A DNA stretch of 44,263 nt from a phage: assembly GCA_029038705.1 (NCBI GenBank), contig GCA_029038705.1_4346.1, one strand, 5' to 3'. The notes under the pieces are model-generated. The model saw only the letters and a program-made list of their open reading frames with translations. It was not told the DNA's origin and did not search any database. Positions 2,399 to 44,263 of this stretch are shown piece after piece. Within the stretch, counting starts at the first letter, position 1. Every line of letters starts with the position of its first letter. A program made the translations under genes and the position numbers.

Positions 2399-2430
2399 TT
2401 CGTTTTCCTCTGTCTCGTCTGTGTAAATGA

Positions 2431-2459
2431 ATAGTAGCCTATTCTATCTTAGTGTGCAA
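2431..2459 (-). promoter_or_regulatory. Sigma70-like promoter (TTGCAC-N17-TACTAT) carrying the AATAG-N4-CTATT element
   Basis: On the minus strand: TTGCAC, 17 nt, TACTAT. Plus strand carries GAATAGTAGCCTATTC. Confidence 0.55.
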
Positions 2460-4005: not shown

Positions 4006-4039
4006 TTCTAAATTCCTTATGTCTCGTTTCGATAAGTGA

Positions 4040-4068
4040 ATAGTAACCTATTATGTTGGGGTGTGCAA
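4040..4068 (-). promoter_or_regulatory. Sigma70-like promoter (TTGCAC-N17-TACTAT) carrying the AATAG-N4-CTATT element
   Basis: Minus strand: TTGCAC, 17 nt, TACTAT. Plus strand reads GTGAATAGTAACCTATTATG. Confidence 0.55.
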
Positions 4069-4426
4069 GAGAATAGTTACGTTGCCGTTGTGATTCTTCG
4101 GGGAGGGTTGTGCCTTTATTCTTATTACTTGGTAACTAAAGGGCAGGCTTAAGCCTGCCCAATAATCGTTACATTTTTACGGTTGCGAATCTACGGCACA
4201 TTAAGAAACAGTATATATTTCAGCGGGTTACTTCTTTAAATGAGATTTAGATACACTTATCCTTAAACCCCAAGGCAAGCATCTCAGCTGTCTGGGAGGG
4301 GTTGACGAATCCCTCGGGGAGGGTTCGTCAACTCCGTAATATATACAAGTCCCAAAACCATTATACAAACATGTGTCAAGAACTTTCAATAACATTTTTG
4401 TAAAGATTAAATATTACAGAGATTGG

Positions 4427-4455
4427 TTGCTTTTACATTCCCGCTATCCTATACT
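4427..4455 (+). promoter_or_regulatory. Sigma70-like promoter for the rightward operon
   Basis: TTGCTT, 17 nt, TATACT, about 30 nt upstream of the ATG at 4487. Confidence 0.45.
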
Positions 4456-4486
4456 CAGTTTCACCAAACAAACAGGAGATATAAAA

Positions 4487-4669
4487 ATGTCGCATTATAT
4501 GACGCAGAATGAAGTAGCTGAACGTATCGGGGTGACACGTCAGACAATTAATAACTGGTTGCGCAGCGGCAAATTCCCTGACTGCTGTATTAAGGTTATG
4601 GGCCGCCGTTTACCGGGAACATTTGACCGTAATAAAGTCGAAGCATGGATTAAGGAGAACGTGAAATGA
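4487..4669 (+). CDS. Small HTH DNA-binding protein (AlpA/MerR-excisionase-like fold)
   Basis: MSHYMTQNEVAERIGVTRQTINNWLRSGKFP is a helix-turn-helix signature. AGGAGA sits 7 nt upstream; the track's longer ORF from 4373 has no RBS. Confidence 0.6.
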   Translation: MSHYMTQNEVAERIGVTRQTINNWLRSGKFPDCCIKVMGRRLPGTFDRNKVEAWIKENVK

Positions 4670-5025: not shown

Positions 5026-5154
5026 ATGACGAAGTTAATAGTTCCACAGCTGCGCCGACAGAAACACGGCGCCGATTTCTTCGCGCCGGTAAAGATGAAC
5101 CGCGCAATGCGCCGTATGCAGGAAGCCTTAGAACGTGCGGAGAAAAAGAAATGA
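5026..5154 (+). CDS. Hypothetical small basic protein
   Basis: 42 aa ORF (MTKLIVPQLRRQKHG...), AAGGA upstream; ATGA overlap with the next gene. Confidence 0.35.
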   Translation: MTKLIVPQLRRQKHGADFFAPVKMNRAMRRMQEALERAEKKK

Positions 5155-7373
5155 ATATTGTTTTTGCAACGCTGCGTAACACATTCGATAAAAACCCTGT
5201 AGCGCGTGAAATGCCGCTGGAGCAGTTTGTCGAGTATGTCTGCGATACATCGAAGCGTTTATCCGTGGACCCGTCATGGACTAAGGAAGAGTACGACGCT
5301 GCCAAGATTAAACAGAAAGCTATTGCGCCTGTTGGTGGTCGCCGTAAAAACGCTATCCTGGAAGACAGTGTGGTTAAGTTCGATTTCGACCATCTCAACC
5401 GTACTCAGTACCGCGACCTGACACGCAAATTCAAGAACGCGCCGTTCTTCAATATTCTGCACACAACGGCATCGCATCAGCACGCATGTAAAAACGGAGA
5501 TTACGCTTTCCGCGTTCTGGTTCCAGCTCGCACGCCGTTTAACTCTAACGACGCGTGGATGGTGCAACGTGCTATTTGTGCAGAGTTAGAAATAGACGAA
5601 GCGTTGCGCGACCACTGCACAGAAGACGGCAACCGCCTTATCTACCTGCCGCATAAAGAGTCGAAGATAACGGTTACAGAAGGGCGTGTTATCCGTGCTG
5701 AGCGGTACATCAAGAAAGCCGAAGAGATGGGGTTGCGTAAGCGTGAGGCTAAAACACTTGCCGCTGATGAGCATGGGCTTAACGCGGATATAGCACACTT
5801 CTGCGAAGCCGAGCTTGGCCTTGACGCTTTATCTTCCGGGCGCGGGTACGAAGTGCCATGCCCTAACGAACATCTGCATACAGGCAAGGGCTCCACCAGC
5901 ATAATGCTCGACGGTAAAGAAGTGCGCTTTGTCTGCCAGCATACAAACAACGGCGCTTGCACCGAGCTTAACCGTAGGCAGCATTTGGCCCTGCGTATGT
6001 GTGGCCTACCCGACGAGCTTAACATAGATAAGCAACCTATCAGCATTAACAGCATTCGTGCGGCTCTGCCTGATTTACCGGAAGAAGAGATTGAAGAACT
6101 ACACCGCACAGAGAACGAGGACCCAGTAACTTGCAGCCTCGACGACCTGGAAGACGACGAGGACTCAGAGGAGGACGAGTTACCGGAGCCGGTAAAGGCT
6201 GATTTCGTCGTTGAGGGGTACATGCCGTCGGATTGTATCTGGGATATCGTCGGGGAATCTGGCACGTACAAATCGTTCTATACGCTGGGGATGATGTACC
6301 TCAGCGCCGCCGGGTACAGGTTTGCGGGGGCGGATACCCAGCGTTGCCACCATTTCTATATTGATGGTGAGGGTGGCGCAGCTACACGCACCCGTATTGA
6401 TGCACTAGCGGCTAAATATGGCGGGGAAGGTAAAGATTATGTACACGTCATCGATATGGGCGAAGTCGGCAAACTTAAAAGCCTGATTAAGTTAATGCGC
6501 GAAACTGCTGGCGACGAGCCAATTGGCATGGTTGCGTTCGACACCCTTAACCAGACCCTGGCACTGACGATTGATAAGTTCGACGAGAACAGTTCATCAA
6601 CAGCAATCGGCATGGGTAAAGTTATCGCCATTCTGAAAGAAGTACGCGATGCAACTAAAGCCGCAGTAGGCGTTGTCCACCATACGCCGAAGGGTGGAAA
6701 GAAAGCACGCGGCAGTGGGGCGCTGTATGCGGGTGTTGACGTGGAACTGACAATCGAACGTGCAACCGACCGTCAGATAAACGTATATCACTCGAAATTC
6801 AAGCACGGGCCTCAGCAGAAGACGGTTGGCATGGTGCTGGAGTCGGTACAGTTCCGTGAAGCGCCGCCGCCTAAAGAATACCGAGCGGTTGAGTTCCTGG
6901 GTAGCACAGAGGAATACGGCACAATCGTAAACCTGGACCTGCCTGAACCACACAAGGCGCTTGTGTTGATGCCGTGGGGTTTCGAGCCGTTCAAAACTGA
7001 CGAGGAGAAAGAGCGGGAAGAAGGGTTGACGAAAGAAGGTAAGCAAAAAGTAAAGGAAGAAGTTAAACGCGGCAGGGATGAAGTAAGGAAGGAGTCAATA
7101 CTTTCGGCACTGGAAGACCTGCAACAGTCAGATGACACAGGTCGCGGTTTTACTCAGCAGCAGATAGTGGCTCGTTCCGGTGACTTCTCTGTGACTAACA
7201 CCCATCTTGATAAAATGTTGAAAGATGGAGAACTAATGCTTGGTTGCGATGCTAACGGCGAAGTAGTACCGAGAACATATCGTATACCCGAAAGAATAGG
7301 TGATAGATTAAGGCCGAAGACACTATACGAACCAAATGAGATGCTGGTGGTGACAGAGGAGGATTTGGAATAG
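5151..7373 (+). CDS. Replicative primase-helicase-like protein (N-terminal primase-like region, Cys/His cluster, C-terminal RecA/DnaB-type P-loop ATPase)
   Basis: 740 aa. Walker A-like GESGTYKS, Walker B-like VAFDTL, Cys/His cluster CPNEHLHTG...CQHTNNGAC, and a C-terminal acidic/basic tail. Domain assignment is by eye. Confidence 0.65.
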   Translation: MNIVFATLRNTFDKNPVAREMPLEQFVEYVCDTSKRLSVDPSWTKEEYDAAKIKQKAIAPVGGRRKNAILEDSVVKFDFDHLNRTQYRDLTRKFKNAPFFNILHTTASHQHACKNGDYAFRVLVPARTPFNSNDAWMVQRAICAELEIDEALRDHCTEDGNRLIYLPHKESKITVTEGRVIRAERYIKKAEEMGLRKREAKTLAADEHGLNADIAHFCEAELGLDALSSGRGYEVPCPNEHLHTGKGSTSIMLDGKEVRFVCQHTNNGACTELNRRQHLALRMCGLPDELNIDKQPISINSIRAALPDLPEEEIEELHRTENEDPVTCSLDDLEDDEDSEEDELPEPVKADFVVEGYMPSDCIWDIVGESGTYKSFYTLGMMYLSAAGYRFAGADTQRCHHFYIDGEGGAATRTRIDALAAKYGGEGKDYVHVIDMGEVGKLKSLIKLMRETAGDEPIGMVAFDTLNQTLALTIDKFDENSSSTAIGMGKVIAILKEVRDATKAAVGVVHHTPKGGKKARGSGALYAGVDVELTIERATDRQINVYHSKFKHGPQQKTVGMVLESVQFREAPPPKEYRAVEFLGSTEEYGTIVNLDLPEPHKALVLMPWGFEPFKTDEEKEREEGLTKEGKQKVKEEVKRGRDEVRKESILSALEDLQQSDDTGRGFTQQQIVARSGDFSVTNTHLDKMLKDGELMLGCDANGEVVPRTYRIPERIGDRLRPKTLYEPNEMLVVTEEDLE

Positions 7374-7400
7374 GTAAAAAGAAAGGGGCGTTACGCCCCT
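7373..7400 (-). terminator. Terminator between the converging primase-helicase and XRE genes
   Basis: Hairpin AGGGGCG-TTAC-GCCCCT; minus strand is followed by UUCUUUUUACC. Overlaps the XRE stop codon. Confidence 0.5.
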
Positions 7401-7606
7401 TCACCTAGCGCCAGCCACTTGGCGTCTACTTCCAGCACTTCCGCCAGTTTAAACAGCGTTGCCGGGCGTACGTCCTGAGTTACCCCGAGTGCAAGCTGGT
7501 TAATCGCGCCCTGGGAAACGCCGGCCAGAACAGCCAGACGGCGCTGGGAGATACCGAGTTCTTTACGGCGTTGCTCTACACGGATGCCTAGTTCAGATGG
7601 TTGCAT
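7391..7606 (-). CDS. XRE-family (Cro/CI-type) HTH transcriptional regulator
   Basis: 71 aa; ELGISQRRLAVLAGVSQGAINQLALG is the XRE helix-turn-helix pattern. Divergent from the flanking plus-strand genes. Confidence 0.8.
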   Translation of the reverse strand: MQPSELGIRVEQRRKELGISQRRLAVLAGVSQGAINQLALGVTQDVRPATLFKLAEVLEVDAKWLALGEGA

Positions 7607-7626
7607 GTCAGTTACTCCTTAGTCAG

Positions 7627-7655
7627 TTGATATGTGAATAGTACCATATTAATTA
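7627..7655. promoter_or_regulatory. Operator-like copy 1 (GTGAATAGTACCATATTAAT), probably overlapping the leftward promoter of the XRE gene
   Basis: Degenerate copy of the AATAG-N4-CTATT element (second half ATATT), immediately upstream of the XRE gene start. Confidence 0.45.
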
Positions 7656-7670
7656 TTTTAGAAAAGCCCA

Positions 7671-7699
7671 TTGACATGTGAATAGTTCGCTATTATAGT
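7671..7699 (+). promoter_or_regulatory. Sigma70-like promoter (TTGACA-N17-TATAGT) with embedded AATAG-N4-CTATT palindrome
   Basis: TTGACATGTGAATAGTTCGCTATTATAGT; drives the gene at 7728. Confidence 0.6.
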
Positions 7700-7727
7700 T
7701 AGCCCATACCAAACGAGAGGGGCAGAT

Positions 7728-7955
7728 ATGAACACAATCACTGGGGCCATAGCTAAAGGTTTTCGAGCAATTTTCGGCGCTCCGCAAGAAGTGTGCACAA
7801 AACATAAATTTGTACTTTCTTGCGTAGTAGGGGATGAGTTTGATGGGTTCGATAAACTTGTTGTCTGTGACCATTGCGGGCAAGAAGCTATTCAACACTC
7901 AAACGGTAAATTTGAACTAATAGACGATAGCCTTACTGAAGGCGACGGTGAGTAA
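7728..7955 (+). CDS. Hypothetical protein (possible Cys-containing zinc-binding motif)
   Basis: 75 aa; CTKHK...CDHCG; GAGAGGGG RBS upstream. Confidence 0.5.
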   Translation: MNTITGAIAKGFRAIFGAPQEVCTKHKFVLSCVVGDEFDGFDKLVVCDHCGQEAIQHSNGKFELIDDSLTEGDGE

Positions 7956-7979
7956 CTTACACAAACAGGAGAGAAACAA

Positions 7980-8480
7980 ATGTTAGAGAAATTCTTAGTA
8001 TTGCTGGAACGTTTCGTAGTTGCACATGAACTGATTGCCGCGAACAGTGCGAAACAAGTTGTTCAGGTTGCCACGCCGCTGGAAGTAGAGACGGTATCGT
8101 ACACCAAAGAAGCGGTAGCTGAGTGCGCTGAAGAAGCAACAAAAGAAATCCCGGTTGAAGGTGAAGACGTAGTTGACACTAAACCGGCGGAGGAAGAGAA
8201 GCCAAAACGCAAGCCGCGTAAAGCTAAAGTAGAGGAACCTGCGCCAGAACCGGAAGAAGAGAAAGAAGAAGTCGATTACAAGTCTCTGCGTGACCAGATT
8301 CAGGCCATCGACGATGCAATTAATGAAGGTCCTAGCGATGCCGCGTGCGACGATTCTGATGAACTGCTGGAAGAGTTCACTGGTAAGAAAATGAAGATTG
8401 CAGCGATTAAAGACGAAGACCTGGCTGAATACCTGGAACGCTTGACAGCAATCAAGAACAAGTATTTCGAAGAAGAATAA
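7980..8480 (+). CDS. Hypothetical highly acidic protein with a short Lys/Arg-rich insert
   Basis: 166 aa; long D/E runs (EEEKPKRKPRKAKVEEPAPEPEEEKEE, DDSDELLEEF, KYFEEE). Confidence 0.55.
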   Translation: MLEKFLVLLERFVVAHELIAANSAKQVVQVATPLEVETVSYTKEAVAECAEEATKEIPVEGEDVVDTKPAEEEKPKRKPRKAKVEEPAPEPEEEKEEVDYKSLRDQIQAIDDAINEGPSDAACDDSDELLEEFTGKKMKIAAIKDEDLAEYLERLTAIKNKYFEEE

Positions 8481-9369: not shown

Positions 9370-9524
9370 CGAACCGTAAAGCGCGACTTCTCTTTATTAA
9401 ATGTCACCAGCCTTTTCGAGTAAGCAACTCGACTTGGCTGATTATATTCAACCGTAGCGGTGACACGTGCGCCTACAAGCGCAAAACGCGTAAAGTTAAA
9501 TGGGGTGGGAGTTTAAGAGCATGA
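9366..9524 (+). CDS. Hypothetical small protein
   Basis: 52 aa ORF, ATGA-coupled on both sides. Confidence 0.35.
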   Translation: MTNRKARLLFIKCHQPFRVSNSTWLIIFNRSGDTCAYKRKTRKVKWGGSLRA

Positions 9525-10762
9525 AACTAAAAGAACGAGGCGGCAATAATGATGTACACGCCTTACTGTCACCGTCAGGCGCTAAAAAGTGGCTGTCATG
9601 CGCTGCGTCGCTGGCGTGTGAAAAAGATATCCCTAACACGTCGGGTAAAGCCGCTGTATCAGGAACCGCCATGCACACCATAGCTGAGGTCCATCTCAAC
9701 GCCTATATACGCGGCACTGCGTTGCCGTTGGAGCGTGAAGTCGGCGCTTACGTGCTGGACGAGGGTAAAGGCCAGATTAAGGCGCTAATTAGCCAGATGA
9801 AAGGCGCGGTACTGATTACGGCTGACATGATTGAGCAGGTGCGCAAGTACACCGACTACTGCAAAGCGATTATCGACGTAGCGACTTACGCCAAGCTGGA
9901 AATGCGGGTAAATCTTACTGAGGTATTGCATCCGGGTTACGAAGGCGTTGAGACGTTCGGAACCGCTGACCTTGTTGCCGTTCAGGAACTGGCGAACACT
10001 GACGAGCATATGCTCATTATCGGCGACCTGAAAACAGGACGGCATCATGTCGAAGCGAAAGAAAACAAGCAGCTTATGCTCTACGCTCTCGGTGTTTACC
10101 GCCGACTCAAGAGACGTTATAACATATCAGTAGTGCGCCTGGTCATCTTCCAGCCGTACGCCGGGGGCGCGTCGGAGTGGGACATCTCGGTTGAAGGTCT
10201 GGAACTGTTCGCTAAGTTCGCACAGAAACGCGCACTGTTAGCCCTTGATGCGTATTTCCGAGGCAAGAAGAACCTGAAAGCGTCGGACTTTAAGCCGTCT
10301 GTCGACGGTTGTCAGTGGTGTCGGTTCTCTGAACAGTGCGCAGCGCGTACAAAGACGGTTAATTCTGTACTTGCCGAAGAACTGGAGGACGACTTTGCGC
10401 TGGAACTTACGCCGGAGCAACTCGTAGCTGAATATGAGAAGTTGCCGTTGTTGCGCCAGCACATCGATAAGGTCGAAAAAGCTATGGCTGCTGCGTTGCA
10501 TTCCGGTAAGAAAGTGCCAGGGTACAAGCTGGTGGAAGGTCGCCCAGGTAATCGTGCGTGGAAAGACGCAGAGAAAGTAGCAGAACTCTACGGCGACAAG
10601 CTGACTAAAGAAGTGCTCCTGACGCCGACCGAAGCGGTTAAAGTAATACCAGAAGAAGAACTGAAAGACTTCATCACACGTAAGCCGGGGGCGCCATGCG
10701 TCACAACAGCGGACGACAAACGTCCTGAGTGGAATCAGGTTAGTGAAGAAGATTTGGAATAA
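9521..10762 (+). CDS. PD-(D/E)XK exonuclease (RecB/Cas4-like, DUF2800-type) with C-terminal cysteine cluster
   Basis: LLSPSGAKKWLSC N-terminal motif, GTADLV...IIGDLKTG...QLMLYALG nuclease core, C-terminal CQWCRFSEQC. Start is probably the ATG at 9521 (GGGAG upstream) rather than 9500. Confidence 0.7.
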   Translation: MKLKERGGNNDVHALLSPSGAKKWLSCAASLACEKDIPNTSGKAAVSGTAMHTIAEVHLNAYIRGTALPLEREVGAYVLDEGKGQIKALISQMKGAVLITADMIEQVRKYTDYCKAIIDVATYAKLEMRVNLTEVLHPGYEGVETFGTADLVAVQELANTDEHMLIIGDLKTGRHHVEAKENKQLMLYALGVYRRLKRRYNISVVRLVIFQPYAGGASEWDISVEGLELFAKFAQKRALLALDAYFRGKKNLKASDFKPSVDGCQWCRFSEQCAARTKTVNSVLAEELEDDFALELTPEQLVAEYEKLPLLRQHIDKVEKAMAAALHSGKKVPGYKLVEGRPGNRAWKDAEKVAELYGDKLTKEVLLTPTEAVKVIPEEELKDFITRKPGAPCVTTADDKRPEWNQVSEEDLE

Positions 10763-10766
10763 AGTG

Positions 10767-10795
10767 TTGACACCTGAATAGTTAGCTATTATAGT
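10767..10795 (+). promoter_or_regulatory. Sigma70-like promoter (TTGACA-N17-TATAGT) with AATAG-N4-CTATT palindrome
   Basis: TTGACACCTGAATAGTTAGCTATTATAGT; upstream of the SSB-like gene. Confidence 0.6.
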
Positions 10796-13829: not shown

Positions 13830-13915
13830 AAATCTACTGGTTCTATGAAGAAGACTGTCGAATCTGTCCGCGCTGCGGGATTGAGCACACGAAACGTGAG
13901 GGGTGCGTATTATGA
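13826..13915 (+). CDS. Hypothetical tiny Cys-rich protein
   Basis: 29 aa (MKIYWFYEEDCRICPRCGIEHTKREGCVL); ATGA-coupled. Confidence 0.25.
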   Translation: MKIYWFYEEDCRICPRCGIEHTKREGCVL

Positions 13916-14409
13916 AAGCACCAAGTGACGATATAAAAGATTTTCTGTCATACGACCCGGATACCGGGATATTTAAATGGGTCAAGCACAGATGCCAGAC
14001 CGCGAAACCCGGAGATGTTGTTACATACAAGGACCGTAAAGGGTACATATTGTTAGGATGGAGTAGGGTGTATTACCGCGCACACAGGCTGGCGTGGTGG
14101 TGGGTGTACGGAGAGATGCCAACTAAGCAAATAGACCATATTAACGGCATACGGGACGATAACCGGATTTGTAACCTACGGCTTGCGGATGAATTTCAAC
14201 AGAACCATAACCGCAAGACCCCAGTTACGAACACCAGCGGCGTGAAAGGGGTTAACTGGAGTAAGCCTCATAATGCTTGGTGTGCTCGAGTTGCTTTTAA
14301 AGGTACACGCTATCAGATTGGGTATTTCCAGAACCTAAATGAAGCAGAGGAATCCCTGAGAGAATTTAGGGTAAAACTGCACGGAGAGTTTTGCAACCAT
14401 GGCGACTAA
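13912..14409 (+). CDS. HNH homing endonuclease with AP2-like DNA-binding domain
   Basis: HRLAWWWVYGEMP...IDHINGIRDDNRICNLRL...NHN is the HNH motif; SGVKGVNWSKPHNAWCARVAFKGTRYQIGYF is AP2-like. Track start 13903 is GTG; ATG at 13912 has GAGGGG upstream. Confidence 0.8.
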   Translation: MKAPSDDIKDFLSYDPDTGIFKWVKHRCQTAKPGDVVTYKDRKGYILLGWSRVYYRAHRLAWWWVYGEMPTKQIDHINGIRDDNRICNLRLADEFQQNHNRKTPVTNTSGVKGVNWSKPHNAWCARVAFKGTRYQIGYFQNLNEAEESLREFRVKLHGEFCNHGD

Positions 14410-14686
14410 AGAGGGCCGCGTACAGAAATACGCAAAAGAGCAATTCGAGGCCATTGGCGGCCTCGTTCGTAAACTTTCGTACGAGGGGCGCTCCGGCGCC
14501 CCTGACCTGCTGGTAATTCTCCCCGGCGGCATCGTCTGGTTCGTCGAGGTGAAGAAAGACGAAAGCACGAAGCCTGACCCACACCAGTTACGAGAGCATG
14601 AGCGGATGCGTAAACGTGGTGCGAATGTTTTTGTCGTCGGGTCGTTCAAACAGGTTGACGACCTAATAGCGAACTATTATAGTTAG
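14399..14686 (+). CDS. VRR-NUC domain nuclease (PD-(D/E)XK)
   Basis: 95 aa; GAPDLLVILPGGIVWFVEVKKD matches the D-x(n)-E-x-K core. Confidence 0.7.
   Translation: MATKEGRVQKYAKEQFEAIGGLVRKLSYEGRSGAPDLLVILPGGIVWFVEVKKDESTKPDPHQLREHERMRKRGANVFVVGSFKQVDDLIANYYS
14655..14683 (+). promoter_or_regulatory. Sigma70-like promoter (TTGACG-N17-TATAGT) with AATAG-N4-CTATT palindrome, inside the 3' end of the VRR-NUC gene
   Basis: TTGACGACCTAATAGCGAACTATTATAGT. Confidence 0.55.
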
Positions 14687-14716
14687 CCCTACACCAACAA
14701 TATAAGGAATTGATAG

Positions 14717-14908
14717 ATGAAATACGAATATGACCGTAAACCAGCACGTGACATCGTACCTGGCGACATGATTTTCAACGTTAAGACCCGCCAGCCTGTT
14801 GCCGTTGATACGGTGTTCGTCGAGTCAAACGGTAAACTGGTTATCGAAGATGTAACAGGCAATGTTACAGCGTTCGGGCGTAAAGAGTTAGTTCTGGTGG
14901 CAAAATGA
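14717..14908 (+). CDS. Hypothetical protein
   Basis: 63 aa ORF with AAGGAA RBS. Confidence 0.5.
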   Translation: MKYEYDRKPARDIVPGDMIFNVKTRQPVAVDTVFVESNGKLVIEDVTGNVTAFGRKELVLVAK

Positions 14909-25815: not shown

Positions 25816-26062
25816 TACGGCCTTCGAACAGTGCGTCTAGGCCCATTATTAAGTCTACCTCAAGCAACGAGAACGGCTGTTTATGCAACTCTGCGTACGC
25901 TGTAAGGTGGTGATATTGGAGCATTTCCCTTGGTATTAGCACATTATTGCGGCTTACAAACTTCAATGCGTAGTATTTATCCATTATTTTCATCATATCG
26001 CTCGGGCATTCCGGCGGGGTTTCCTCAGGCTCCTTCGGTACAGGTAACCCCATAGCCGCCAT
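25793..26062 (-). CDS. Tail assembly chaperone, T-like downstream ORF
   Basis: 89 aa between the G-like chaperone and the tape measure. Its frame is open about 39 codons upstream of the ATG and is -1 relative to the preceding ORF. Confidence 0.4.
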   Translation of the reverse strand: MAAMGLPVPKEPEETPPECPSDMMKIMDKYYALKFVSRNNVLIPREMLQYHHLTAYAELHKQPFSLLEVDLIMGLDALFEGRNEDDYNG

Positions 26063-26151
26063 AGCGGCCTTGTGCCCGTCGGCGATGGAGTCGAACTCAC
26101 GTCTCCTTTGCCGTATAACCCAGCGATACCTCGCATATTCGTAAAGCGCTT

Positions 26152-26568
26152 CTACTTTACAGATAAAGCTTTGCGGCTCTCAGCATGGTGTTGAGCGACA
26201 GCCCCTCCCAACCCTTTATACTCCTTCAACAGCTTGACCAACGCTTTCTTAGTGAACTTCTCCTCGAAGGACCACCCTACAACAACAACGGCAGCAAGTG
26301 CATCGTTAAGTTTAGCCAATTCACTGTTTAATTCCGTGTTATAGCGCGCCCAGTCCCCTTTCTCGCGGCACTCCGCGTCGAGCGGTTTCAGGCGGTCAAG
26401 GATGTCGCGGTAAGCGGAGATAAAATCCTTAGCTGCGGCGATTGAGTCGTCGCAGTCAGGCCCCATCACCTGCAACCACTCCCCTGAGTCACTGCCGTCC
26501 GGTAGCAGGATAGGCATCTTAGTTCCCGCAGCGTGGCGGGACGCGAAATAAAAATCAGAAAGTTTCAT
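26152..26568 (-). CDS. Tail assembly chaperone (gpG-like)
   Basis: 138 aa, acidic; canonical position between the major tail and tape measure genes. Confidence 0.5.
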   Translation of the reverse strand: MKLSDFYFASRHAAGTKMPILLPDGSDSGEWLQVMGPDCDDSIAAAKDFISAYRDILDRLKPLDAECREKGDWARYNTELNSELAKLNDALAAVVVVGWSFEEKFTKKALVKLLKEYKGLGGAVAQHHAESRKALSVK

Positions 26569-26677
26569 TCTTTAATCCTTTGGTTAAGAGGTTGTTGGTT
26601 AAAGAGAAATGCACCAGGCGGTAACCAACCGCTTTTCGTGCGCGACACTAGGTGCAAAATTATTCTAACACACTACT

Positions 26678-26706
26678 TGCACACCCCAATATAATAGGGT
26701 ACTATT
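26678..26706 (+). promoter_or_regulatory. Sigma70-like promoter (TTGCAC-N17-TACTAT) with AATAG-N4-CTATT element, driving the plus-strand cassette
   Basis: TTGCACACCCCAATATAATAGGGTACTAT; same architecture as the minus-strand early promoters at 2431 and 4040. Confidence 0.55.
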
Positions 26707-28307: not shown

Positions 28308-28808
28308 ATGGATTGGAGTGAGGTTTTTAGCTACAAAAATGGCGTCCTATACTGGAAAGTCAAATCATGTCGCCGTAACGATGTGAATATAGGTGATGTG
28401 GCCGGGAGTTTGTGTAAAAACGGCTATTGGTATGTCATGTTTGGTAACCGTAAGTTTAAAAGGTCGAGGGTGGTGTATGAGATGTTCTCAGGTAAGATTC
28501 CAAAAGGATTTGTCATAGACCATACTAACCATGATACCTGTGACGACAGAATTGAAAACCTGTCATGCAAATCTAGAAGGGACAACATGGTTAACGTGAA
28601 AAGGCGCAAAGATAATACCTCTGGAGTTACGGGTGTGGCGCGGAAAGGAAAAACTAAGTGGAGAGCTTATGCCGTTGTCAACGGTAAGCAGATTAGTAAA
28701 ACATTTGACAGAATAGAGGACGCTTTCGCTGAAAGAATTTACATGTCTGTGGCTAATAGGTTTCACATAAATCATGGACTGACAACATTCAACAACGGTT
28801 ATAAATAG
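28308..28808 (+). CDS. HNH homing endonuclease with AP2-like domain (paralogue of 13912..14409)
   Basis: GFVIDHTNHDTCDDRIENL...(HNH) and SGVTGVARKGKTKWRAYAVVNGKQISKTF (AP2-like). Confidence 0.8.
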   Translation: MDWSEVFSYKNGVLYWKVKSCRRNDVNIGDVAGSLCKNGYWYVMFGNRKFKRSRVVYEMFSGKIPKGFVIDHTNHDTCDDRIENLSCKSRRDNMVNVKRRKDNTSGVTGVARKGKTKWRAYAVVNGKQISKTFDRIEDAFAERIYMSVANRFHINHGLTTFNNGYK

Positions 28809-37544: not shown

Positions 37545-37647
37545 AAAAATAATATCTCAGGGAATTTTTTCTTATTGCGGTGCGATGTCTTGCTGTGGTA
37601 CATGTATATACACAATCTTTATACTAGAAGAAGCGGAGGGTATTTTA

Positions 37648-38997
37648 ATGGGGTCCAGACGTTTAACTGAAGAAGATGTAAACCTGAGACTGGCGTCACG
37701 GGGTATAGTAGTAATTGAGTATGCAGGCCACTCTAAACTTAAGTCTAAATTCCGCTGCCGTAGTGGCCATGTGTGGGAGACAAAGGCCAATACCGTCCTA
37801 AACGGTCATGGTTGCCCCCAATGCTACGCTGCGGAAAAACGGGCGAAAGTAACAGAGTGGCCTAATGGGGTTGAATGCCTTAATTACGCAGGTGCTGTAA
37901 GTGGGAAATCAACGTTCAGATGTAAATGCGGGTTCGTCTGGTCCGCTACCGGCAGCGACATTTTAAGGGGTAAAAGTCATTGCCCGAATTGCAGCACTAA
38001 CAGAAAAAGGCTCGAGATCGGAGAAATAGAGGAAAGGTTACGCGGCACTGGTTTTGAACTGGTGTCTTATTCAGGGGATATCTGCCGTGCGCCATCGACA
38101 CTGAGGTGTCAAAAAGGCCATGAATGGGCCTCTACGCTTGGTAACATTTTTCAGGGTAGAGGGTGCCCGCGGTGCGCGTCGTTCGGGCGTAGTAAAGTGG
38201 AGGATGAAGTCTGTGAATTTCTCGATAGCATGGGGGTGGAATATCATCGGAATGATAGAAGTCTTATCCACCCAAGAGAGATAGATATTTTAATACCGCA
38301 ACATAATCTGGCGATAGAAATAAACGGCCTGTACTGGCACAGTGAAGCTGCCGGGAAGGGGAGAAAGTATCACATGGAGAAAAGAGTCGCCGTTGAGGAA
38401 AGAGGGTTCAGGCTCCTGTCAATAAGGGATGAGCTATGGCTGCATAAAAAAGAAATAATAAAGAAAATAATCGGCCATTCCGTCGGCGTCTCTTCTTTGC
38501 GAGTTTTCGCCCGCAAATGCCATGTAAAAGAGATTAACAAAATATGTGCAGAGCGTTTCCTGGAGGAGAACCACATTCAAGGATTCCGTAACTCGACGAG
38601 GTATATCAGCCTCGTTTATGAAGAAAAGATTGTTGCGGTAATGACGCTGACGTGTAGAAAAGGTGAATGGGAGCTTGTGCGGTACGCTACGTCGTGTTCG
38701 GTGGTAGGCGGGCTGTCGAAGCTATGGGCCTATGCCGTGCGCCGTTATAGCATCACCGACGGTTTTACCTACACTGACCGGGATTTATTTACCGGAGAAT
38801 CATACCTATCAGCGGGGTTTAAAAAGGCTTCTGTGAGATGTGGATTCCGCATCGTCGTAAACAATGCGACTAAAACAGAATCACGGCAAAAATGGAACAA
38901 AGCGCCAGAGGGGCTTACACAGTCGGAATGGTACGCTGCGGAAGGTGTATCCCGCATATGGGATAGCGGACAAGAGAAATTGGTATGGAATAAGTGA
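37648..38997 (+). CDS. Stand-alone nuclease with repeated zinc-ribbon modules and a PD-(D/E)XK-like core (homing-endonuclease-like)
   Basis: Three repeats of a C-x-x-G/C-H...CPxC module (CRSGHVWET..CPQC; CKCGFVWSA..CPNC; CQKGHEWAS..CPRC), then REIDILIP...AIEINGLYWHS. Start is probably the ATG at 37648 (GGAGGG RBS), not 37585. Confidence 0.55.
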   Translation: MGSRRLTEEDVNLRLASRGIVVIEYAGHSKLKSKFRCRSGHVWETKANTVLNGHGCPQCYAAEKRAKVTEWPNGVECLNYAGAVSGKSTFRCKCGFVWSATGSDILRGKSHCPNCSTNRKRLEIGEIEERLRGTGFELVSYSGDICRAPSTLRCQKGHEWASTLGNIFQGRGCPRCASFGRSKVEDEVCEFLDSMGVEYHRNDRSLIHPREIDILIPQHNLAIEINGLYWHSEAAGKGRKYHMEKRVAVEERGFRLLSIRDELWLHKKEIIKKIIGHSVGVSSLRVFARKCHVKEINKICAERFLEENHIQGFRNSTRYISLVYEEKIVAVMTLTCRKGEWELVRYATSCSVVGGLSKLWAYAVRRYSITDGFTYTDRDLFTGESYLSAGFKKASVRCGFRIVVNNATKTESRQKWNKAPEGLTQSEWYAAEGVSRIWDSGQEKLVWNK

Positions 38998-42288: not shown

Positions 42289-42380
42289 AGAATCCCCTTG
42301 CATATGCGTCTGACCATCAGAGCGCACCAGACGCGCCCTACGCGTCTAAATGGATTATATAAGGGGATTGGGCGGGATGT

Positions 42381-42406
42381 ACAGAAAAGCCCTCGGTAGA
42401 GGGCTT
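42381..42406 (-). terminator. Rho-independent terminator upstream of the packaging genes
   Basis: AGCCCTC-GGTAG-GAGGGCT; minus strand is followed by UUUUCUGU. Confidence 0.5.
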
Positions 42407-42507
42407 GTATCAGTTGTATAGGCCGTGGCGTGGTGCTCTTTTACCGTCGCCGCCGTAATGGTCGTTAGCTACGGGAATGGCCCGGGCGTTAGGGATGATT
42501 AGTAGTC

Positions 42508-44212: not shown

Positions 44213-44241
44213 AATATAATAGGGTCGAGGATAATAGTCAA
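44213..44241 (-). promoter_or_regulatory. Sigma70-like promoter (TTGACT-N17-TATATT) with two CTATTAT elements
   Basis: Minus strand: TTGACTATTATCCTCGACCCTATTATATT. Confidence 0.5.
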
Positions 44242-44263
44242 CTAGTCATTACAGAAAACAGAT

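Follow-up and report, generated by a model that had tools for sequence, protein, structure and literature searches.

Introduction

The 434 and P22 proteins bind as dimers to dyads of 14-18 bp, contacting the outer 4-5 bp and leaving the central ~4 bp free to vary. The 434 operator reads ACAA-N6-TTGT, and the P22 operators are N4-centred. A typical mark of plasmid-prophage repressors, such as P1 C1, and of those of cluster-A mycobacteriophages, such as L5 gp71, is that their operators are dispersed over many lytic promoters. In this study, we analysed a phage DNA of 44,263 nucleotides (contig GCA_029038705.1_4346.1; this whole stretch is referred to as the window) that carries xre, a minus-strand gene at 7391-7606 (ATG at 7606) encoding XRE, a 71-aa single-domain HTH_3 protein similar to 434 Cro. 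An initial annotation had pointed to two palindromic elements in the region that xre faces. We found that this dyad is distributed genome-wide and is not local, which is the main addition to the earlier observation. On balance, we favour the reading that XRE is a CI-less, autoregulated Cro-type repressor, which would damp early and middle promoters throughout the genome during lytic growth.

The window is a complete, circularly permuted genome of a Kagunavirus (Guernseyvirinae), a siphovirus infecting E. coli. The whole circular curated genome of phage Bas70, which is 97.5% identical to the window phage, was collinear with the window, and the window closed on itself in BLAST comparison; it therefore represents the complete genome, with nothing lying just outside it. 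A 1.7-kb segment around xre matched 427 phage records, nearly all named Escherichia, Salmonella or Kagunavirus phages. The best record was Escherichia phage vB_EcoS_XY1 (99.1%), and phage BUCT825 was 100% identical across 7391-7960. The matching siphoviruses belong to Kagunavirus and Jerseyvirus, genera of the subfamily Guernseyvirinae whose isolates are treated in the literature as strictly lytic.

Results

XRE is a 434 Cro homologue encoded by an intact gene

XRE matched the Pfam family HTH_3 (PF01381) with an E-value of 2.3e-12 (47.2 bits, cutoff 23), and the HTH_19 and HTH_31 profiles also scored above their cutoffs. A phmmer search of PDB identified 434 Cro as the closest solved structure (E=2e-6, residues 6-68; 1zug/2cro/3cro), followed by the DNA-binding domains of the 434 repressor and P22 c2. 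By tblastn, XRE was 41.3% identical to the phage 434 cro locus, and the other matches were CI or Cro genes of further temperate phages. The AF2 model of XRE (pLDDT 79) contained five helices (5-17, 21-28, 32-39, 48-57 and 62-66) and conforms to a globular fold with a helix 2-turn-helix 3 motif. Its top Foldseek matches were SinR-N, 434 Cro (42% identity), the 434 repressor, P22 c2, HipB and C.AhdI, with a probability of 1.0 and TM scores of 0.7-0.8. These results, from both fold and sequence, place XRE in the HTH_3 superfamily as a homologue of 434 Cro, in agreement with the Cro/CI-type assignment of the initial annotation. With 434 Cro it shares the length of 71 aa, the five-helix HTH_3 fold, ~41% identity and, in its predicted operators, an overlap with core promoters. 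In databases, the gene is labelled "transcriptional repressor", "Cro" or "DicA". Protein searches with XRE, both word-indexed and exhaustive, returned just close phage relatives or generic proteins with multiple helix-turn-helix (HTH) domains, in uninformative contexts.

The gene was intact in 38 of 38 Kagunavirus loci, with a pS of 0.22, a pN of 0.013 and a pN/pS of 0.058. It is under strong purifying selection and is a working gene, not a relic. Because of this conservation, and with the site also found in the promoters of replication genes, the earlier suggestion that xre may be a remnant of a temperate ancestor is not upheld. A ribosome-binding site, AAGGAG (7615-7620, minus strand), lies 8 nt before the ATG and was unchanged in 37 relatives. 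A terminator scan found an intrinsic terminator for xre at 7382-7402 (minus strand), whose hairpin overlaps the last codons and the stop, with a T-run on the minus strand only. Bounded by this terminator and its own promoter, xre is monocistronic. The convergent helicase-primase operon had no evident terminator around 7373-7402, so rightward early transcripts may run antisense through xre and delay its expression. E. coli strain 2017.09.02CC (NZ_AP025214.2) carries a type I-E CRISPR spacer that matches positions 7409-7443 in xre at 35 of 35 positions; when 5,426 complete E. coli genomes were searched with the 3.85-kb segment 5151-9000, nothing else matched.

A 14-bp dyad is repeated in promoters across the genome

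The 121-bp intergenic region in front of xre (7607-7727) contains a 25-nt direct repeat at 7627-7651 and 7671-7695. The two copies are 84% identical, start 44 bp apart, as had been described for the palindromic elements, and each has a dyad core. The core of the second copy, O2 (7681-7694; AATAGTTCGCTATT), is the perfect 5+5 dyad AATAG-TTCG-CTATT. That of the first, O1 (7637-7650; AATAGTACCATATT), is the imperfect dyad AATAG-TACC-ATATT, with one mismatch in an arm. We then scanned the genome for all 5-Nk-5 dyads without bias. AATAG-N4-CTATT was the top-enriched dyad, with 6 perfect copies against 0.04 expected, and the next-ranked dyads were terminator stems. With up to one mismatch allowed, the window contained 12 copies against 1.09 expected, a number reached in 0 of 100 shuffles, which indicates that the repetition is not due to chance. 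The perfect copies start at 2430, 4039, 7681, 10777, 14665 and 26693. All of them are at gene boundaries, and every one lies inside a sigma-70-type promoter-like site.

These promoters form two classes. Class A promoters have the structure TTGACA/TTGACG-N4-dyad-ATAGT, are all on the plus strand (7671, 10767 and 14655), and head the exonuclease, SSB/DNA-polymerase and helicase operons, respectively. The first is P_R1 (7671-7699), a near-consensus promoter (TTGACA from 7671, a 17-nt spacer and TATAGT to 7699; 11/12) that carries O2 in its spacer, abutting the -10. The genes under P_R1 are those at 7728-7955 and 7980-8480 and further genes on to the DUF2800/PD-(D/E)XK exonuclease gene (9500-10762). 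P_R2 (10767-10795; TTGACA-17-TATAGT, dyad at 10777-10790) drives the genes for the ssDNA-binding protein and DNA polymerase, and P_R3 (14655-14683; TTGACG-17-TATAGT, dyad at 14665-14678) drives a small open reading frame (ORF) and the genes for the SNF2 helicase and the Toprim protein. Class B promoters read TTGCAC-N10-dyad-CAC, with the -10 TACTAT inside the dyad, and are found at 26677 (plus), 4068 (minus) and 2459 (minus). The promoter at 26677-26706 (TTGCAC-17-TACTAT, dyad at 26693-26706 over the -10) drives a plus-strand nuclease island (a 108-aa protein, an exonuclease and an HNH protein) within the tail genes. P_L1 (4039-4068, minus strand; TTGCAC 4068->4063, dyad at 4039-4052) serves a leftward small-gene operon from 4005, and P_L2 (2430-2459, minus strand; TTGCAC 2459->2454, dyad at 2430-2443) serves leftward small genes from 2398.

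Besides O1, one-mismatch copies in intergenic promoter-like contexts were found at 1363, 35909 and 44233, and those in coding DNA (5311 and 19866) were about as many as expected by chance. A possible further target is the minus-strand site at 44213-44246 (TTGACT-17-TATATT), with the dyad ACTAG-TTGA-CTATT over its -35. A possible weak target is the site at 1355-1384 upstream of the lysis genes (minus strand; GAGACA-18-GATAAT, dyad at 1363-1376).

Two promoters of the window carried no operator. P_E (4427-4455, plus strand; TTGCTT-17-TATACT) precedes the gene for a small HTH_17 protein (4487-4669) and the helicase-primase gene (5151-7373); it was kept in a plasmid-like relative and, as TTGATT-17-TATACT, in phage Jersey. 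The second (42354-42383, minus strand; TGTACA-18-TATAAT), immediately behind a terminator and ahead of the terminase genes, is likely the late promoter. This terminator-then-promoter arrangement before the small terminase gene (42354-42440), with a perfect TATAAT and no dyad, was conserved in three Guernseyvirinae lineages. Its equivalent in the distant relatives St162 (loci L042 and L045; ~18503 of L045) and VLCpiS11a (loci L043 and L046; ~675 of L046) is TTGCCT-17-TATAAT.

O1 lies over the predicted promoter of xre itself, 31-44 nt upstream of its start codon. On the minus strand, O1 reads AATATGGTACTATTCAC, a class B core without a -35. Alignment of the promoter contexts gave the class B core TACTATTCAC, and we infer that xre is transcribed from the extended -10 TGgTACTAT (7638-7646, minus strand). 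The arm mismatch of O1 creates the TG of this extended -10, and the TG is kept in relatives whose next base changes. In Jersey, xre has a promoter of the regular class B type (TTGCGT-17-TACTAT), whose -10 is covered by a degenerate dyad. An alternative leftward promoter-like site is present at 7655-7682 (minus strand; TTCACA-16-TAAAAT, 10/12), and its -35 part varies among relatives.

One site overlapping the strong rightward promoter and the other next to the xre start were thus located as the initial annotation had stated, and this is the placement expected for autoregulation. The further idea of a self-contained tandem operator switch did not stand, because each site belongs to its own promoter, the spacing varies, and the two sites are 2 of at least 7 copies in the genome. 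O1 and O2 were 44 or 45 bp apart in Kagunaviruses, whereas Jersey had a spacing of 55 bp. The 2-3 nt from the -35 to O2 showed substitutions and single-base indels among Kagunavirus relatives. A cooperative or looping O1-O2 pair was rejected on the basis of this spacing and of the fit of each site to its own promoter. A CRP-like site, suggested by TGTGA beside the dyad, was also rejected, since those bases vary among relatives.

The arms of the dyad are conserved in relatives

We examined the xre/intergenic region in 37 distinct Kagunavirus sequences. In the arms of O1 and O2, 0 of 20 columns varied (0/10 at each site). The centres varied in 4 of 8 columns, including 3 of the 4 columns of the O2 centre, and about half of the other non-promoter intergenic columns varied. 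The alignment showed no other conserved candidate operator in the 121-bp control region of xre. Bas70 had 7 perfect dyads, and Jersey had 4 perfect and 3 degenerate ones, again all in promoters. In related IMG/VR loci totalling 431 kb, there were 117 perfect dyads against 0.4 expected, and the 77 class A sites among them had 19 different centres. The exact class A module occurred in 46 stretches among 2.9 million IMG/VR contigs, mostly in contigs of 41-45 kb, many of which also carried xre.

The register of the dyad relative to the -35 was +4, +7 and +10/11 in Jersey and, overall, +4, +7, +10 or overlapping the -35, with the arms always N4 apart. The variable register and the fixed N4 indicate that the dyad is a separate module and not a promoter element. 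That the repeat is a promoter-intrinsic feature or a chance likeness, with no trans-acting protein, is very improbable: the right arm CTATT does overlap -10-like hexamers (TATAGT, TACTAT or TATTAT) in every case, but the left arm has no promoter role and is nevertheless invariant and placed exactly N4 from the right arm, the register against the -35 varies from overlapping to +10, and the enrichment is far above that of shuffles while the centres vary freely.

In the more distant St162, a related dyad, AWTAS-N4-STAWT, was enriched in promoters (6 against 0.69 expected). It is degenerate, and its copies include one in the promoter divergent from xre, in a position abutting ATAGT as in Kagunavirus. 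The candidate dyad of VLCpiS11a, ATATGA-N6-TCATAT, was weak, with 2 perfect copies only. In both phages, xre has the same orientation as the helicase-primase gene and directly precedes it as the first gene of the operon. This classical cro position suggests that the Kagunavirus/Jerseyvirus layout arose by inversion of the helicase-primase block.

The genome has no lysogeny genes

The initial annotation had noted the lack of an integrase, an excisionase-integrase pair and a CI-length repressor. Among the ORFs of at least 150 aa in the complete genome, no match to integrase, recombinase or S24 peptidase families was found. Neither a CI-length repressor nor a second HTH_3 protein was found in the complete genome, and no partition, integration or plasmid-maintenance genes were found in it. 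These absences were borne out; what must be added is an excisionase-family HTH_17 protein (excisionase/AlpA-type, 60 aa), encoded at 4487-4669 with no integrase alongside. An integrase inside or outside the window was rejected, as the genome is circular against Bas70 and a recombinase domain was not found. The 470-aa ORF at 37585-38997 encodes a homing endonuclease.

We searched for copies of the region in bacterial genomes. A prophage copy was found in 0 of 5,426 complete E. coli genomes. There was no close XRE homologue in 185,579 species-representative genomes, where a single-protein scan gave generic XRE proteins. Among 72,556 plasmid records, one, pC16EC0033-2 (CP088689.1), was a complete circular Kagunavirus genome of 44,086 bp, filed under an E. 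coli blood isolate as its non-mobilizable "plasmid" and 92% identical over the region. It may reflect a rare carrier state or contamination.

Other features of the genome

In the plus-strand block of ~4.4-16.8 kb, xre is the sole credible minus-strand gene, as originally described for the replication module and as the curated Bas70 annotation agrees. One more opposite-strand ORF there, of 30 codons in a spacer, is dubious. The first gene after P_R1 differs among close Kagunaviruses, with at least six unrelated alternatives, and this position is an accessory-gene hot spot. In the window it is a 75-aa Cys-rich gene (7728-7955; phrog_32657, no Pfam match), which together with its leader, and not with the promoter/operator, is common to T7-like Kayfunavirus podophages at ~87% nucleotide identity.

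Three homing-endonuclease genes were found, at 13903-14409 and 28308-28808 (both HNH_3) and at 37585-38997 (treble-clef/Vsr-like). The last, on the opposite strand, separates the head-morphogenesis gene from the portal gene. All three segments were unaligned to the otherwise collinear Bas70. The window also lacks a DNA methyltransferase gene (14404-14908, compared with 25833-26618 of Bas70), which in Bas70 and Jersey follows the small ORF behind P_R3 and precedes the SNF2 helicase gene. The 413 bp at 4075-4486 had no credible ORF and could be an origin or a small RNA. Two hairpins are found in this segment, one resembling a terminator (4141-4160) and the other long and perfectly paired (~4302-4332), together with a strong promoter-like site in antisense orientation, TTGAAA-18-TATAAT (4389->4360). 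Rfam and tRNA scans of the window, this segment included, gave no matches.

Discussion

In this study, we found that a dyad facing a Cro-like gene recurs in the promoters of a lytic phage genome. Reading from the arrangement of the sites that XRE binds, whether it activates or represses, when it acts and which sites fill first, we propose the following mechanism. The operator would be the 14-bp dyad AATAG-N4-CTATT, bound by the dimer-type XRE protein. The operators sit in the core of strong promoters for host RNA polymerase, all of which would fire upon infection. They lie in the spacer, abutting the -10, in the promoters at 7671, 10767 and 14655, and on the -10 at 4039 and 2430 (leftward) and 26693 (rightward). 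Strong promoters with a 17-nt spacer, which in class A are near-consensus, need no activator, and a protein bound on the spacer or the -10 would therefore have to repress. XRE, made from a weak extended -10 promoter, would accumulate and fill the perfect operators first, and this occlusion would lead to a delayed turn-down of early and middle transcription. The weaker, imperfect O1 would be filled last, at a higher level of XRE, resulting in negative autoregulation and a ceiling on XRE. The helicase-primase promoter P_E and the putative late promoter, having no operator, would escape. The net role would be the lytic-cycle function of lambdoid Cro extended over the whole of a virulent genome. 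Control of early-to-middle timing in a virulent phage had been one of two suggestions of the initial annotation, and it is the one that the sequence leads us to favour as well.

Several features of this system are those of the lambdoid phages. As in 434 and P22 operators, the 14-bp dyad predicted to be bound by XRE keeps its outer arms constant while its centre varies, and the proposed turn-down of early promoters in lytic growth with autorepression corresponds to the action of lambdoid Cro. However, unlike 434 Cro, XRE has no cI partner with which to share a tripartite operator or form a bistable switch, and there are only two local sites. The gene is transcribed away from the replication genes, in the cI position, and is not the first P_R gene; the first-gene, co-directional position of cro is absent in the window and present in the distant St162 and VLCpiS11a. 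Whereas lambdoid phages have 2 x 3 clustered sites, at least 7 operators are found here at 7 separate promoters, and the phage is virulent. With no second regulator in the genome, a bistable switch is not indicated. The best reading is that the XRE/dyad system is neither a bistable switch nor a decaying remnant.

XRE itself is probably the protein that binds the dyads. The invariant arms and variable centre match the operators of 434/P22-type HTH_3 dimers, which argues for XRE. Two sites sharing one intergenic region occur at xre only, and one of them covers the xre promoter in both Kagunavirus and Jerseyvirus. In addition, St162 has no HTH_17 protein and a diverged xre, and still has a 5-N4-5 promoter dyad, which also argues for XRE. 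In a natural Kagunavirus variant with G33S in the recognition helix, the operator is unchanged, which indicates that some variation of this helix is tolerated.

Other observations weigh against XRE as the binder. The XRE proteins of Kagunavirus and Jerseyvirus are ~50% identical and their recognition helices differ at four positions (SQGAINQ in Kagunavirus and SQSLITH in Jerseyvirus), yet their dyads are identical. The HTH_17 protein is 80% identical between these two genera, which share the dyad, and it is absent from St162 and VLCpiS11a, both of which are without the AATAG dyad. The co-occurrence thus fits HTH_17 equally well. As regards covariation of helix and operator, the dyad is shared despite the differing helices of Kagunavirus and Jerseyvirus, and the dyad evidence is degenerate in St162 and weak in VLCpiS11a, where the perfect copies number two. 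A literature search found no binding or expression experiment, no operator and no multi-promoter regulon described for XRE. The sole transcriptome of a relative, phage K1B4 (PMC12645636), has coarse time classes and a gene numbering mapped here by inference, and provides no test of the model.

One alternative is that the dyads are bound by HTH_17 (4487-4669) or by a host protein, with xre having a role that is narrower or of another kind. The gene for HTH_17 is expressed from P_E, the single early promoter that lacks an operator, and the conservation and pattern of absence of the protein follow the AATAG dyad, while the XRE recognition helices differ between the genera. Both proteins were found in the same ~440-550 records, so that presence or absence does not discriminate between them. 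Small winged-helix proteins of the excisionase/AlpA type, however, typically bind direct repeats and not 14-bp dyads with a free centre. The St162 promoters are enriched for a 5-N4-5 dyad though HTH_17 is absent, and the control region of xre holds no other conserved candidate operator. As for a host protein, CRP is improbable, as the TGTGA beside the dyad is not conserved. For these reasons, we consider binding by HTH_17 or a host protein unlikely.

The dispersal of the sites is shared with P1 C1 and with L5 gp71, whose sites are known as "stoperators". In each of those systems, one repressor acts on many copies of a short site at lytic promoters throughout the genome. The two repressors are larger, unrelated proteins that use asymmetric sites and maintain lysogeny; XRE is Cro-sized, its dyad is symmetric, and no lysogeny was seen. 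It is nonetheless conceivable that XRE is an immunity-type repressor that, by shutting off nearly all strong promoters, permits occasional pseudolysogeny in a repressed, non-integrated state or guards infected cells against superinfecting related phages, as a working relic of a temperate ancestor. The spread of the dyads over many strong promoters, the freedom of the helicase-primase promoter from an operator, the deposition of one complete Kagunavirus genome as a circular plasmid of an E. coli blood isolate, and the finding that XRE, outside its own group, is most closely related to Cro and CI proteins of temperate phages are in line with such a role. However, there was neither a prophage copy nor a close homologue in the bacterial genomes searched, the plasmid record is a single one, and the genome has no genes for partition, integration or plasmid maintenance. 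XRE is Cro-sized, without an oligomerisation or cleavage domain. Its promoter appears, from the site over it, to be autorepressed, with no sign of positive feedback, and published isolates are described as lytic. This explanation is accordingly given a low probability. With operators so dispersed, XRE could silence almost every strong promoter while the helicase-primase operon stays on. We give a still smaller chance to the stronger form of this idea, in which "strictly lytic" Guernseyvirinae could occasionally persist as repressed, non-integrated episomes, in a P1-like carrier state without partition genes, and the immunity of XRE-expressing cells would extend to all Kagunaviruses and Jerseyviruses.

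The Aca repressors are small phage HTH proteins that silence very strong early promoters soon after infection, and the variable accessory genes after P_R1 resemble acr cassettes. XRE might be such a local regulator, damping the very strong P_R1 of a fast-changing, possibly anti-defence cassette, with the other dyads being secondary. The turnover of the first gene after P_R1, one version of which is common to T7-like Kayfunaviruses, speaks for this explanation. But the five other perfect operators lie in promoters of conserved core genes (polymerase, SSB, helicase and exonuclease), and these operators are equally conserved in Jerseyvirus. The aca genes lie downstream within the accessory operon that they repress and act on one promoter, whereas xre is divergent and monocistronic and apparently controls core replication operons. 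An Aca-like role is, on these grounds, improbable.

Two further families of small HTH_3 proteins and the temperate immunity modules were compared with the locus. Controller proteins of restriction-modification systems (C.AhdI, C.BclI) are small HTH_3 dimers with a similar fold in Foldseek that autoregulate through dyad C-boxes and serve as delay timers. In these systems, however, two adjacent C-boxes are bound cooperatively to activate and then repress one operon including the endonuclease gene, whereas the XRE dyads are 44-55 bp apart, in separate promoters of what would be a multi-promoter regulon. No endonuclease gene follows xre, and its dyads are not adjacent. Type II antitoxins of the HipB/HigA kind have a co-transcribed toxin gene, and xre has none, being monocistronic. 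A temperate immunity module is likewise not seen, as there is no integrase or maintenance function and there are no prophage copies in the E. coli genomes, the plasmid-labelled record being the sole exception.

The Guernseyvirinae comprise more than 400 sequenced Salmonella and E. coli phages, many of which have been proposed for therapy or biocontrol. These phages are routinely declared "repressor"-free, or are flagged on account of the annotation of this gene (repressor, Cro or DicA). If XRE were shown to be a conserved lytic-cycle regulator of the phage's own promoters, this annotation problem would be settled. The analysis also gives a testable transcription map, with operator-bearing early/middle promoters on one side and operator-less helicase-primase and late promoters on the other, for a group without an experimental map, and it provides a compact set of repressor, operators and promoters for engineering small phages. 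The mechanism as such is unsurprising; the regulon is clean and is conserved in hundreds of phages that are candidates for therapy. As a concept, XRE would represent a Cro-type protein that, with the CI half absent, works on its own to provide negative feedback over the whole genome.

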